64,000 nucleotides of DNA from Candidatus Methylomirabilota bacterium (lineage in GTDB: Bacteria > Methylomirabilota > Methylomirabilia > Rokubacteriales > CSP1-6): the NCBI GenBank assembly GCA_046723475.1, contig JBKOUQ010000132.1:3056-67055 (forward strand), given 5' to 3'. Numbering within the stretch: position 1 is the first letter of the stretch; each line of letters starts with the position of its first letter. Position numbers and translations under genes: made by a program. The notes beneath the pieces are model-generated. The model did not search any database, had not been told where the DNA came from, and worked only from the letters and a program-made list of their open reading frames with translations. Shown here in pieces: positions 47,660 through 55,094 of the stretch.

Positions 47660-47812
47660 CGCCTATATTTCTGCGGGCGTGGACGTCTGCTGACGAAAGC
47701 CATGCCGCGCGAGGGCGGTTTCGATTAATATGCCCGAGCGCACGGCAGTCAAGATGTTCGCGCCGGGTCCGTTCGACCCGAAAATTTTGATTCGTTGATG
47801 GAAGGAGACGCG

Positions 47813-48160
47813 ATGGCGACGGTGAATGAGACTCGGGAGAGCACGCCGACTCGGCGGGTGGAGGTCGCCGCGACCGCGCCGCAGATCAAGTGGGACGACG
47901 CGAATATGAAGAGCTCCTACGCGAACGTGTGCAATGTCGCGAGCACGCGCGAGGAGGTCGTTCTGCTCTTTGGCATCAACCAGGCGTGGCACGCGGGGCA
48001 GCGCGAGGTGACCGTGCAGCTCACCGACCGGATCATCCTCACACCGTTTGCCGCGAAGCGGCTCGCGATTCTGCTGAACAATTTGATGCGCGAGCACGAG
48101 ACGCGCTTTGGCGCGCTCGCCGTCGAGGGACCGCGTCCCGGCGAGACGCCGTCGGCGTAG
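47813..48160 (+). CDS. DUF3467 domain protein
   Basis: RBS AAGGAG 5 nt before the ATG at 47813. ..SSYANVCNVASTREEVVLLFG...LTPFAAKRLAILLNNLMREHETRFGAL matches the DUF3467 pattern as I recall it (YAN...V..T.EEF.LDFG ... P..AKRL...L..N...YE..FG). Confidence 0.7.
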   Translation: MATVNETRESTPTRRVEVAATAPQIKWDDANMKSSYANVCNVASTREEVVLLFGINQAWHAGQREVTVQLTDRIILTPFAAKRLAILLNNLMREHETRFGALAVEGPRPGETPSA

Positions 48161-48181
48161 TCGTGGCAGTGCGCCGCCGCA

Positions 48182-48209
48182 CGCCGCCTCCGGGATGCCG
48201 GAGGCGGCG
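48182..48209 (+). terminator. Intercistronic stem-loop (possible attenuator or RNA-stability element; no T-tract)
   Basis: cgccgcctccgg-gatg-ccggaggcggcg (12-bp perfect stem), 22 nt after the DUF3467 stop and 35 nt before the next ATG. Confidence 0.45.
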
Positions 48210-52284: not shown

Positions 52285-54265
52285 ATCGGCCACGCTGCCC
52301 GAGACGCCGACCGGCGCGTATGCGGAGCGCCGCGTGCGGCCGCGGAGCGCGTTCGATCGCTTCGGCGACCGGGTGATGGCCCCGCTGCTGCGCCGGCGAC
52401 GCGCGTCGTGGCGGCGCTGGGCGGGCTTTCCGCGCCTCGTCGATGCGCAGGCGCAGGATCTCGCCGAGCGGGACGACGCCGCGCTGCGCGAGGCGGCCGA
52501 CGACGTGCGCGCGGCGCTCCGGCAGCGGCGCTTCGAACCGCCCGCCGTCGCGCGCGCGTTTGCCCTCGTGCGCGAGGTCGCCGCCCGCACCCTCGGCGAG
52601 CGGCACTTCGACGTCCAGCTCGTCGGCGGGCGCGTGCTGCTCGACGGCATGATCGCCGAGATGGAGACGGGTGAAGGCAAAACGCTGACCGCGACACTGG
52701 CCGCCAGCACCGCCGCGCTCGCCGGCATTCCGGTGCACGTCGTCACCGTCAACGACTATCTGGCCACGCGTGACGCGCAGTGGATGACGCCGATCTACCG
52801 CGCGCTCGGCGTCAGCGTCGGCGTCGTCGTGCACGGCATGGACAACGACGCGCGGCGCGCGGCCTATGCGGCCGACATCACCTACGTCACCAACAAGGAA
52901 ATCGCATTCGATTACCTGCGCGACCGGCTGGTCCTCGGCCAGCGCACGGGACGCATCGCGCTGCAGCTCGAGCGCCTCGCGGGCGATGACGCGCGCGCGC
53001 GGCGGCTCGTGCTGCGCGGGCTGCATTACGCCATCGTCGACGAGGCGGACAGCGTGCTGATCGACGAGGCCCGCACCCCGCTCATCATCTCAGGCGGCGG
53101 CCGCGACCGGGGCGAGCGTCGCGTGTTTTCGACCGCGCTCGCCCTCGCGGATCGGCTCGAGGCGGGGAGCGACTTCATCATCGATCCTCGCGACCGCGAG
53201 GTCCGTCTCACGGACGCGGGCGCCGCGCGTCTCGACGACGTCGCCCGTCCGCTCGGCGGCGTGTGGCGCGGCCGCGTGCGACGCGAAGAGCTCGTGCGCC
53301 AGGCACTCACGGCGCGTCACCTGTTTCATCGCGACCAGCACTACCTCGTGCACGACGATAAGGTGCAGATCGTCGACGAGTTCACCGGTCGCGTGATGGC
53401 CGATCGCTCGTGGGAGCATGGCCTGCACCAGCTCATCGAGGTGAAGGAAGCGTGCCCGGTGACGGCGCCGCATCAATCGCTTGCGCGGGTCAGTTATCAG
53501 CGATTCTTCACGCGGTACCTGCGCCTGGCCGGGATGACCGGCACCGCGCGCGAGGTTCGCGGGGAGCTCTGGTCCGTCTACCGGCTCGCGCTCGTCTCCA
53601 TTCCGACGAACCGGCGGATGCGCCGCACGCTCGAGCCGGACCGCATGTACGTGTCCGAGGGCGATCGCTGGGACGCCGTGGTCGACCGTGTGGTACGCGT
53701 GCACGAGTCCGGTCGGCCGATCCTGCTCGGCACACGCTCGGTGGCCGCGTCCGAGCACCTGAGCGGCCTGCTCGACCAGGCGGGGCTGGCCCACCGCGTG
53801 TTGAACGCGCGCCAGGACGCCGAGGAGGCGCAAATCGTCGCCGACGCCGGGCAGCGCGGCCGCATCACCGTCGCCACGAACATGGCCGGCCGCGGAACGG
53901 ACATCCGTCTTGGTCCCGGCGTGGGCGAGCTGGGCGGACTGCACGTCATCGCCACCGAGCGTCACGAGGCGCGCCGCATCGACCGGCAGCTCTTCGGCCG
54001 ATCCGGGCGGCAGGGTGAGCCCGGCAGCGCGGAGGCGATCCTGTCGCTGGAGGACGAGCTGCTTGCCCTGCACGGGCCGCGATGGCGACGCCTGGTGGCC
54101 GCGTTCGCGCGCCCCGATGGATCGGTGCCGACGTGGCTCGCGCGGCGGGTGGTGGCGTTGGCGCAAAAGGCCGCGGAGCGCTTGCACGCGCGGATGCGCG
54201 GCGATCTCTTGCGCGTGGACGAACAGCTCGAGTCCACGCTCGCATTTTCCGGACGGCCGGAGTGA
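52277..54265 (+). CDS. SecA-like ATPase, truncated paralogue type (motor domains only, 662 aa)
   Basis: AEMETGEGKTLTATL (Walker A), VHVVTVNDYLATRDA, ITYVTNKEIAFDYLRD, AIVDEADSVLIDEARTPLIISG (DEAD), TNMAGRGTDI, GGLHVIATERHEARRIDRQLFGRSGRQGEPGS. The ATG at 52277 overlaps the upstream gene by 8 nt. The C-terminal wing/CTL region seems absent. Confidence 0.85.
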   Translation: MSRSATLPETPTGAYAERRVRPRSAFDRFGDRVMAPLLRRRRASWRRWAGFPRLVDAQAQDLAERDDAALREAADDVRAALRQRRFEPPAVARAFALVREVAARTLGERHFDVQLVGGRVLLDGMIAEMETGEGKTLTATLAASTAALAGIPVHVVTVNDYLATRDAQWMTPIYRALGVSVGVVVHGMDNDARRAAYAADITYVTNKEIAFDYLRDRLVLGQRTGRIALQLERLAGDDARARRLVLRGLHYAIVDEADSVLIDEARTPLIISGGGRDRGERRVFSTALALADRLEAGSDFIIDPRDREVRLTDAGAARLDDVARPLGGVWRGRVRREELVRQALTARHLFHRDQHYLVHDDKVQIVDEFTGRVMADRSWEHGLHQLIEVKEACPVTAPHQSLARVSYQRFFTRYLRLAGMTGTAREVRGELWSVYRLALVSIPTNRRMRRTLEPDRMYVSEGDRWDAVVDRVVRVHESGRPILLGTRSVAASEHLSGLLDQAGLAHRVLNARQDAEEAQIVADAGQRGRITVATNMAGRGTDIRLGPGVGELGGLHVIATERHEARRIDRQLFGRSGRQGEPGSAEAILSLEDELLALHGPRWRRLVAAFARPDGSVPTWLARRVVALAQKAAERLHARMRGDLLRVDEQLESTLAFSGRPE

Positions 54266-54281
54266 TGGCGGAGGCTTCCTG

Positions 54282-55094
54282 GTGAGACGTGTCTTGGTGA
54301 TGCTGGTTGCCGGCGCGCTGCTGCTGCCGACGACGACCGTCGCGCAACCCTCGACGTACGAGTGCCTGATCTATCCCTACGTTCACGTGGCCGTCAGCTC
54401 ACCGGTCGAGGGCCTGCTCGAGCGCGTGCTCGTCGATCGCGGCGATCTCGTTCGCGAGCAGGACGTCATCGCGACACTCGAGTCGAGCGTGGAAAAGGCC
54501 GCCGTGCTGCAGGCGCGGGCGCGCGCGGAGATCGAATCGGCGCTCAAATCCAACCAGGTGCGTCTGGATTTCGGCGTGCGTCGCTTCCAGCGCACCGATG
54601 AGATGTACAAGAAAGATCTCGTGCCGCTCAAGGAGCTCGACGAGGCCGAGACTACGAAGCTCCTGGCCGAGCTCGGCGTGCTCGAAGCGCAGGAGAACCG
54701 TCGCATCGCGGAGATGGACCTCGAGCGCGCCGGAGCACTGCTCAAGCTGCGTACGATCTACAGTCCGGTCACCGGCGTGGTGACCGAGCGCATGCTGGCG
54801 CCGGGCGAGTTCGCCAAGCAAGCGCCGATCGTCAAGATCGCGCAGATCCATCCGCTGCGGATCGAGGTACTGCTGCCCGTCACGATGGTCGGTCGGGTCA
54901 CCGTTGGCATGCGCGCCGAAGTGATGCCGGAGGCGCCGGTCGGCGGCACGCACATCGCGAAGGTCAGCGTGGTCGACCGCGTGGTCGACGCGGCGAGCGG
55001 CACGTTCGGCGTACGCCTCGACCTGCCGAACCCCGACTACAAGCTTCCCGCCGGCCTCAAGTGCCGCGTCCGGTTCCCGGTCGCGCCGCGCTAG
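54282..55094 (+). CDS. Secreted HlyD/RND-adaptor-like (MFP) protein
   Basis: GTG start with RBS GGCGGAGG. Signal peptide VRRVLVMLVAGALLLPTTTVAQ. Lipoyl (..RGDLVREQDVIATLES..), coiled-coil and barrel segments. 270 aa. Confidence 0.75.
   Translation: MRRVLVMLVAGALLLPTTTVAQPSTYECLIYPYVHVAVSSPVEGLLERVLVDRGDLVREQDVIATLESSVEKAAVLQARARAEIESALKSNQVRLDFGVRRFQRTDEMYKKDLVPLKELDEAETTKLLAELGVLEAQENRRIAEMDLERAGALLKLRTIYSPVTGVVTERMLAPGEFAKQAPIVKIAQIHPLRIEVLLPVTMVGRVTVGMRAEVMPEAPVGGTHIAKVSVVDRVVDAASGTFGVRLDLPNPDYKLPAGLKCRVRFPVAPR

Follow-up and report, generated by a model that had tools for sequence, protein, structure and literature searches.

A conserved gene set with a truncated SecA-like ATPase and an M50-HlyD protease, probably part of an exporter for giant LEPR-XLL proteins

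What kind of machine is encoded by a tight run of genes that combines a shortened SecA with an intramembrane protease and three periplasmic adaptors? Such a cluster lies in a 64-kb stretch of contig JBKOUQ010000132.1 (positions 3,056 to 67,055; assembly GCA_046723475.1) from Candidatus Methylomirabilota bacterium, referred to below as the window. The initial annotation, made from the letters alone, had proposed an envelope-spanning processing and export apparatus in which a SecA-like ATPase feeds a polypeptide to a membrane component (a fusion of an M50 protease with a HlyD module) for cleavage and/or export. This proposal is supported here, since the conserved set adjoins genes for giant proteins, SapC and TolC in other genomes. 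The polypeptide fed and cleaved is probably a giant secreted protein, because relatives place giants with RTX or LEPR-XLL motifs, SapC and TolC around the same core. The cluster is thus read, with moderate confidence, as the inner-membrane and periplasmic part of a widespread, undescribed trans-envelope exporter for LEPR-XLL giant proteins that resembles type I secretion systems (T1SS). Five genes compose it; two of their products are fusions and three carry a module of the HlyD/membrane fusion protein (MFP) type:

47795 (TTG; probable start ATG at 47813) to 48160, + strand: DUF3467 gene, 121 amino acids (aa) from the TTG, 115 aa from the ATG
48244-50133, + strand: GAF-HlyD gene, 629 aa (Pfam profiles and transmembrane prediction)
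50137-52284, + strand: M50-HlyD gene, 715 aa, a fusion of a PqqD-like recognition element (RRE, for RiPP recognition element, RiPP being a ribosomally synthesized and post-translationally modified peptide), an M50 protease and HlyD
52277-54265, + strand: SecA-like gene, 662 aa, with an alternative GTG start at 52217
54282-55094, + strand: small MFP gene, 270 aa, with an N-terminal signal or anchor

The list of open reading frames (ORFs) bears out five intact genes on this strand at the coordinates originally claimed, with junctions (83 nt, 3 nt, an overlap of 8 nt, and 16 nt) exactly as first described. Profile searches agree with the earlier statement that the cluster holds no ATP-binding cassette (ABC), major facilitator superfamily (MFS) or resistance-nodulation-division (RND) pump and no TolC gene. 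Comparison with the two closest relatives gave dN/dS values of 0.07-0.20 for the DUF3467, GAF-HlyD, M50-HlyD and SecA-like genes (the first 270 codons only of the SecA-like gene, and with the small MFP left out), and because the values are this low in every gene compared, the cluster genes are not decaying and those compared are under purifying selection.

The set is not peculiar to this genome. A genome scan with one genome per species identified a relative in at least 579 species, and more than 7,900 database relatives of M50-HlyD exist, the nearest named ones being from Rokubacteria/Methylomirabilota. The locus counts rest on the best 80 loci, which come from Methylomirabilota, Nitrospirota, Acidobacteriota, Planctomycetota, Myxococcota, Bacteroidota and alpha-, beta-, gamma- and deltaproteobacteria; neighbours were counted by tblastn of the five window proteins on these loci, with the loci that had room for the gene as denominators. 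GAF-HlyD is directly upstream of M50-HlyD in 71/71 loci, the SecA-like gene directly downstream of it in 65/66, and a third MFP gene within 6 kb in 58/61. Adjacency and co-occurrence across phyla, on which the initial annotation had made its proposal depend, are therefore borne out for the core, with DUF3467 upstream of it in 38/70 loci. ORFs with both a Walker A motif and the LSGGQ signature of ABC proteins occur in 3/80 loci and none belongs to the conserved set. No SecY-like, SecY2 or Asp gene was found among the conserved neighbours of the loci; neither was an RND or MFS transporter, a sigma or anti-sigma factor gene, a radical SAM or other tailoring gene, or an ABC exporter conserved with the set.

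What is recurrently found next to the core was established by clustering the flanking ORFs of the loci and scanning representatives with profiles. In 29 of the 66 loci with at least 3 kb of flank, an adjoining ORF of at least 800 aa carries RTX or LEPR motifs. These giant neighbours, of 0.8-12.7 thousand residues, are of the RTX, Ig and LamG type; their RTX repeats match PF00353 at 7.9e-69, and the RTX giants stand immediately upstream of the core. A relative with 71% identity has such an upstream giant, of at least 3,236 aa and with RTX repeats. A TolC-family outer-membrane protein (OEP, PF02321, 5e-60) is encoded right after the small MFP in 11 loci, Nitrospira loci included, and on 2 plasmids, and SapC (PF07277, 1.5e-71) is present in 9 loci, where it mostly replaces DUF3467 in its slot and sometimes shares the slot with it. 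The most complete gene orders are those of plasmids from cultured bacteria:

Methylosinus sp. C49 plasmid (L084): 8,847-aa giant, DUF3467, GAF-MFP, M50-HlyD, SecA-like protein, MFP, TolC
Pseudosulfitobacter sp. DSM 107133 plasmid: 12,737-aa giant, DUF3467, MFP, M50-HlyD, 'translocase'
Mesorhizobium ciceri R30 plasmid: 10,518-aa giant, DUF3467, MFP, HlyD, M50-HlyD, 'DEAD/DEAH box helicase'
Alisedimentitalea scapharcae plasmid: SapC, 8,148-aa calcium-binding giant, HlyD, M50, SecA
Thalassospira marina plasmid: 4,033-aa giant, DUF3467, HlyD, M50-HlyD, MFP, TolC; no SecA-like gene

The giants share a signature at each end. The T. marina giant is named 'LEPR-XLL domain-containing protein' by the NCBI annotation pipeline (PGAP), and two giants that have their N-terminus within a locus exceed the cut-off of the LEPR-XLL model NF012209. 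A regular expression for the motif, run over 1.4 Mb in six frames, returned four true sites, all of them giant N-termini at the cluster, and one spurious site; with L071 and five plasmid giants, the motif is present at 10/10 visible giant N-termini. In each of these leaders, [FLI]E[PQ]R[LVI]L[LF][SAN][AG] comes after a run of basic residues. In the Alisedimentitalea giant (L086 726-900, - strand) the annotated start is located just downstream of the leader motif LEPRLLLAA. At the other end, W[LVIM]x[DEQ][FW][LVI] is found at most 44 residues from the C-terminus in 11/26 giants, with no occurrence in 45,657 background residues, and it is often followed by NPNxx[IL][KR][IV] (for instance in L060:9-4469, L044:48-6944 and the Mesorhizobium giant, L088); it is a candidate second recognition signal of these proteins.

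The SecA-like protein matches three Pfam families, SecA_DEAD (8e-103), SecA_PP_bind (1e-27) and P-loop_SecA (3e-56), and aligns only to residues 20-607 of the 841-aa SecA of B. subtilis. It retains the nucleotide-binding domains NBD1 and NBD2, the preprotein cross-linking domain (PPXD) and the start of the scaffold helix, a portion that corresponds to the N68 motor-plus-clamp fragment of SecA; its wing domain, two-helix finger and C-tail are absent. The wing domain, the two-helix finger and parts of the scaffold are the regions that couple the SecA motor to SecY. Its scores are below every NCBIfam SecA and SecA2 cut-off (638 vs 814 bits for NF009538). The truncation is that of a family, the orthologues being 574-670 aa long when measured from where the match begins to the stop codon, and the motifs GEGKT, VDEADS, NMAGRGTDI and GRSGRQG are conserved in the same 68 orthologues. 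A C-terminal LAF[ST]GxxE sequence ends 63/68 of them (54239-54265 in the window), possibly as a docking motif in place of the zinc tail with which SecA binds SecB. Orthologues are carried on plasmids of cultured alphaproteobacteria, and no second SecA was found in the window. The initial annotation had counted a housekeeping role of this gene as fatal to its proposal; the depth of the truncation, the scores below cut-off and the plasmid-borne orthologues indicate, if indirectly, that it is not the housekeeping secA. The Methylosinus orthologue (L084 22222-24138), 57% identical to the window protein, is publicly misnamed 'prepilin peptidase'.

That three of the products carry HlyD/MFP modules is confirmed by matches to the HlyD_3, HlyD_D23 and RND_mfp profiles. 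GAF-HlyD (GAF at 3.9e-12, plus HlyD_3 and HlyD_D23) is composed of a cytoplasmic N-terminal region with the GAF domain at about residues 202-332, one transmembrane helix (362-380) and a periplasmic MFP module; the small MFP (RND_mfp 1.5e-29, HlyD_D23 8.7e-17) has a hydrophobic N-terminus. M50-HlyD contains a cytoplasmic winged helix (about 24-97), about seven transmembrane helices and a periplasmic MFP module (446-715) in which HlyD_D23 is also detected. Its HELGH motif occupies residues 210-214, with H210, E211 and H214 inside a predicted membrane helix (193-220), and FNxNPLLRFDGYY follows at 303-315 (FNxNPLLRFDG at 303-313); across 81 sequences, conservation of the two catalytic motifs, HExxH and NPLLRFDG, is 97% or more. 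The daptide-protease model NF041824 is covered over its full length by the alignment with residues 18-412 (3.6e-49), with a score of 168 bits against a family cut-off of 300, and the protein matches the YydH/LiaK model NF058609 at 3.6e-9, with a score of 37 against a cut-off of 225. Precomputed matches to Peptidase_M50 (PF02163) exist for many close homologues. The first claim of an intramembrane M50 protease with HELGH in a membrane segment has support from the motifs and from NCBIfam, although it lies below the Pfam threshold, and the HExxH together with a third-ligand motif of the NxxPxxxxDG type would place the protein in the M50 (site-2 protease) superfamily.

An AlphaFold2 model of M50-HlyD (predicted local distance difference test, pLDDT, of 80) has an N-terminal domain of three strands and three helices, typical of RiPP recognition elements, and a helical membrane domain with a beta-hairpin after the HExxH. 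Foldseek searches with its C-terminal half retrieved MexA, AcrA and MacA with E-values down to 3e-13; the M50 fold obtained no structural confirmation in the Foldseek list, which was filled by MFP matches. The resulting topology places the RRE, the GAF domain and the SecA-like protein in the cytoplasm and the three MFP modules in the periplasm.

DUF3467 (PF11950, 1e-22) scores 80.4 bits, above its gathering cut-off of 25. About 80 residues form a core that hardly changes from phylum to phylum while the ends vary, its dN/dS is 0.07, and hydropathy gives no transmembrane segment. An HMM search detected it in 41/80 loci, in 2-3 copies at a few of them, and it comes after the giant cargo gene and before the machine, where other loci have SapC. 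A family survey of 962 clusters showed almost exclusively stand-alone proteins of 90-150 aa; tandem or N-terminal fusions are rare among these clusters, and no partner in them is informative. A few DUF3467 proteins are tandem, with two domains in 217-252 aa, or have 200-300 additional residues at the C-terminus (P0355, P0359, P0370; P0269, P0354, P0375), and the tandem forms would fit a dimeric working unit. Truncated or frame-disrupted DUF3467 remnants upstream of GAF-HlyD in two betaproteobacterial metagenome-assembled genomes (L018 7839-8087, L021 7746-8069) are either decaying genes or else assembly errors. DUF3467 is proposed to be a chaperone or adaptor of the cargo.

The gap that separates DUF3467 from the machine genes also contains a conspicuous structure:

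about 48170-48220, + strand: G+C-rich stem-loop between DUF3467 and GAF-HlyD (folded and compared with shuffles)

The hairpin reported earlier in this 83-nt gap does fold strongly (minimum free energy -53.7 kcal/mol, z = -6.35), and 0/200 shuffled sequences fold as well. No T-run is present at the stem-loop, which is possibly an attenuator or an mRNA-end element. Stem-loops recur at the same gap elsewhere (L010, L013, L032, L057 and others, compared without a shuffle control), some of them with T-runs. Because such structures, some of them terminator-like, recur after DUF3467, the arrangement suggests two transcription units, the first with the cargo gene and DUF3467, the second with the machine genes.

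How these parts could work together may be outlined as follows, the polypeptide path, the gating by GAF and the role of DUF3467 being put forward from sequence and genomic context. In the cytoplasm DUF3467 would keep the giant unfolded cargo competent for export, or pilot it, as SapC would in other genomes. The basic LEPR-XLL leader would be bound by the PqqD-like domain of M50-HlyD and/or by the PPXD clamp of the SecA-like protein, which would then hydrolyse ATP and thread the chain through an inner-membrane assembly of the membrane parts of M50-HlyD and GAF-HlyD, where the M50 active site would cut off the leader. The three MFP modules would form a periplasmic tunnel that docks onto a TolC-family channel, encoded in cis in some relatives and in trans here, and the cytoplasmic GAF region would tie assembly or activity to a small-molecule signal. 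More ambitiously, the set may represent a new type of secretion system, in which a one-step MFP/TolC conduit is driven by a SecA-derived motor and serves proteins of 4-13 thousand residues, the LEPR-XLL leader being read by a RiPP-style domain and cut by M50, DUF3467 acting as a SecB-like pilot on the LAF[ST]GxxE tail and GAF coupling export to a cellular signal; this full version is a tentative model, plausible but short of probable.

Several observations weigh against the exporter or against parts of it. None of the LEPR-XLL, RTX and C-terminal cargo motifs was found in any frame of the window, tblastn detected no TolC-type outer-membrane factor (OMF) in it, and the nearest relatives (L081, L093 and L094) share this cargo-less arrangement. 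Two loci, L055 and that of T. marina pCSC3H3 (L089), have no SecA-like gene in cis: L055 keeps GAF-HlyD, M50-HlyD and the small MFP, and T. marina also the LEPR-XLL cargo, DUF3467 and TolC, so that the system may obtain its motor in trans or do without it. DUF3467 is missing from about half of the loci. Its AlphaFold2 model, from a 38-sequence alignment, is poor (pLDDT 54, order beta-beta-beta-beta-alpha), Foldseek retrieved no PDB entry below E = 1 with this model, hmmsearch found no match among PDB sequences, and hhalign against E. coli SecB returned a probability of 0.2%; because there is no structural or profile match to SecB, the SecB-like role is an analogy and not a finding. The Pfam matches of M50-HlyD to the protease family (PF02163; 8.6e-4, 19.1 bits against a gathering threshold of 27.2) and to PqqD (6e-4, residues 43-100, weak) are both below the gathering thresholds. 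That the membrane segments of M50-HlyD and GAF-HlyD act as a protein-conducting channel is a supposition, and the functional links are all drawn by association between neighbouring genes. In L055 the opposite strand encodes a 416-aa protein that begins with a DUF3467 domain.

Since the window holds the machine only, the cargo and the OMF must be encoded elsewhere in the genome. SapC was likewise not found in the window. The window also has an RND efflux pair:

13369-14577 and 14584-17892, + strand: ordinary RND pair, an HlyD-family MFP followed by an AcrB-family pump (pump at 4e-250)

No OMF gene was found beside this pair in the adjoining ORFs scanned or elsewhere in the window, and because the ordinary RND pump is also without an OMF gene, an OMF that is shared and encoded elsewhere fits the arrangement.

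Other explanations have to account for the same gene set. The SecA-like protein could be an accessory SecA that uses the housekeeping SecYEG, with M50 as leader or signal peptidase and the MFPs and TolC serving only the outer-membrane step. Such a two-step route would agree with a true SecA homologue that has its PPXD, and accessory SecA2 proteins of mycobacteria do use SecYEG. The LEPR-XLL leader, a basic stretch followed by a short hydrophobic run, is also loosely similar to a signal peptide, and a periplasmic holding stage has been proposed for an RTX protein in a preprint on its own ABC-type T1SS. However, the hydrophobic run LLLSA is far shorter than the h-region of Sec signals, none of the 68 orthologues has the two-helix finger, the wing or the bulk of the scaffold, and no SecY2 or Sec component is conserved nearby; moreover, the large cytoplasmic domains of two MFPs that sit in the inner membrane argue for a conduit from the cytoplasm to the outside, and the two-step route is considered unlikely. 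The presence of a GAF sensor and a protease beside genes for giant adhesin-like proteins, and the lack of cargo and OMF in the window itself, would rather be expected if M50 and GAF cleaved or tethered an adhesin secreted by another system and so controlled its retention at the surface or its release, by analogy with LapD and LapG acting on LapA. This is improbable: the giants have no other ABC-type T1SS conserved near them, a protease with a purely regulatory task hardly accounts for three MFP modules and a TolC in cis, and 65/66 loci have an ATPase with a clamp for polypeptides.

A RiPP or bacteriocin locus would have DUF3467 as precursor, the RRE-M50 part as leader peptidase and the HlyD proteins as export adaptors. 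The similarity of the N-terminal half of the third gene product to the daptide (3.6e-49) and YydH/LiaK (3.6e-9) models, its PqqD-like domain, and the small size of DUF3467, with 2-3 copies in a few loci, can be cited for it, but NF041824 reaches 168 of the 300 bits that its cut-off requires, conserved modification enzymes are absent, and the recurring neighbours are LEPR-XLL giants, so that this explanation appears very unlikely. DUF3467 itself was considered as a precursor and rejected on its conservation pattern (an invariant core with variable ends is the opposite of a leader plus variable core) and on its absence from half of the loci. Finally, MFPs are most often parts of efflux pumps (PGAP indeed uses the label 'efflux RND transporter periplasmic adaptor subunit') and M50 proteases often act in the cleavage of anti-sigma factors, so the set could belong to an unusual small-molecule or metal efflux pump or to a site-2-protease signalling module unrelated to protein export; with no RND, ABC or MFS transporter and no sigma or anti-sigma genes conserved, and with the SecA-like polypeptide motor and the giant neighbours left unexplained, there is hardly any probability left for it.

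An exporter of giant LEPR-XLL proteins would combine features of several known systems. T1SS (HlyB-HlyD-TolC; LapBCE, which serves giant RTX adhesins; CvaAB, with a peptidase-containing ABC exporter) are similar in their HlyD-family MFPs, in the TolC encoded in cis in relatives, in the giant RTX cargo next door and in SapC, which accompanies several loci as it does the sapCDEF operon of C. fetus, and peptidase-containing ABC transporters are similar in that their inner-membrane component includes a protease for the leader or signal. In the cluster, however, the NTPase is a truncated SecA, two of the three different MFP proteins are joined to a sensor or recognition domain in the cytoplasm, an intramembrane M50 protease takes the place of C39, and the cargo has a conserved N-terminal LEPR-XLL leader besides its C-terminal motif; because there is no ABC transporter, the cluster is by definition not a T1SS. 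SecA2 systems (mycobacterial SecA2; SecA2-SecY2/Asp) also rely on a shortened second SecA paralogue, presumably for special cargo, but the SecA-like protein described here is cut much deeper, occurs in diderm phyla and invariably together with MFP fusions, scores below all SecA2 cut-offs and has no SecY2/Asp genes beside it. The RiPP leader peptidases (NF041824; YydH/LiaK NF058609) have the same layout of a PqqD-like domain followed by an HExxH M50 membrane part, whereas M50-HlyD is below their cut-offs, is fused to an MFP and is accompanied by giants instead of short precursors and modification enzymes. With site-2 proteases (M. jannaschii S2P, RseP, SpoIVFB) it has in common the HExxH helix, the later NxxPxxxxDG-type motif and a modelled beta-hairpin, and it differs in having no PDZ or CBS domain, no anti-sigma context and marginal sequence similarity, a profile search for M50 reaching M. 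jannaschii S2P (3b4r) only at E = 0.27. The cluster represents neither a housekeeping SecA nor a SecA2 system, and by score it falls outside the daptide and YydH families. Giant proteins of Omnitrophota carry SecA_DEAD and PPXD without scaffold or wing, and this truncated SecA was proposed to export the giant itself (West-Roberts et al., bioRxiv 10.1101/2023.11.21.568195, on giants of Omnitrophota and Actinobacteria). There the SecA module is inside the giant, whereas here it is a stand-alone protein of 660 aa, encoded in an operon with MFP fusions, and the giant is a separate LEPR-XLL gene; those modules are an independent parallel.

The initial annotation had set the architecture apart from the secretion and RiPP-export systems T1SS, NHLP/NHLM, YydFGHIJ and SecA2/SecY2, and no match to it has emerged from the literature searched or from NCBIfam. 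No description of the gene set was found in the full-text library searched, although journals beyond that library may hold one, and NCBIfam release 20 has no specific models for the components. DUF3467 and LEPR-XLL are mentioned only in passing in this literature, the former in one paper and the latter in two, and a match to 'SecA-like' in a paper on polymorphic toxins was irrelevant. A 2026 preprint places sapC and tolC beside giant proteins in Chlorobium chlorochromatii and does not mention the machine. The set is regarded as a variant of the tripartite MFP/OMF exporter, and there is a real chance that it could count as a new type of secretion system.

The transport of proteins of 5,000-13,000 residues across two membranes is poorly understood, and this gene set provides a concrete candidate machine in cultured Rhizobiales, Rhodobacterales and Pseudomonas. 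If the exporter reading is true, SecA-like plus M50 would be a fourth inner-membrane engine for tripartite MFP/TolC systems, beside ABC, RND and MFS, and a SecA would be working outside the SecYEG pathway. DUF3467, and possibly SapC, would acquire a function, the truncated SecA modules of giant Omnitrophota proteins would be explained, and a widespread misannotation ('efflux adaptor', 'PqqD chaperone', 'prepilin peptidase', 'DEAD/DEAH helicase') would be corrected.

Most of the gene order of the window is common to soil Methylomirabilota relatives, with a syntenic series of thiolase, CoA-transferase, GNAT, citramalate/isopropylmalate-synthase-like, response regulator and small helix-turn-helix (HTH) genes that leads to DUF3467 and the core. 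In L093, glycosyltransferase genes are located between DUF3467 and GAF-HlyD (6882-8081), and in L082 they follow the cluster (15216-21841); they may hint at glycosylation of the cargo or at a link with a surface polymer. The last ORF before DUF3467 in the window is the following:

47438-47659, + strand: helix-turn-helix ORF, 73 aa, with a weak match to HTH_32 (0.025)

The helix-turn-helix of this ORF resembles the N-terminal part of transposases of the IS21 type. L093 has a 79-aa ORF with 74% identity to it in the corresponding place, L045 has one with 67% identity shortly before GAF-HlyD, and because its position is conserved in these two other Methylomirabilota contigs, it is regarded as a kept small regulator and not as the remnant of an insertion sequence. 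It may possibly regulate the locus, its membership of the system being tentative. A weak sigma-70-like site (47641-47669) overlaps the end of this ORF.

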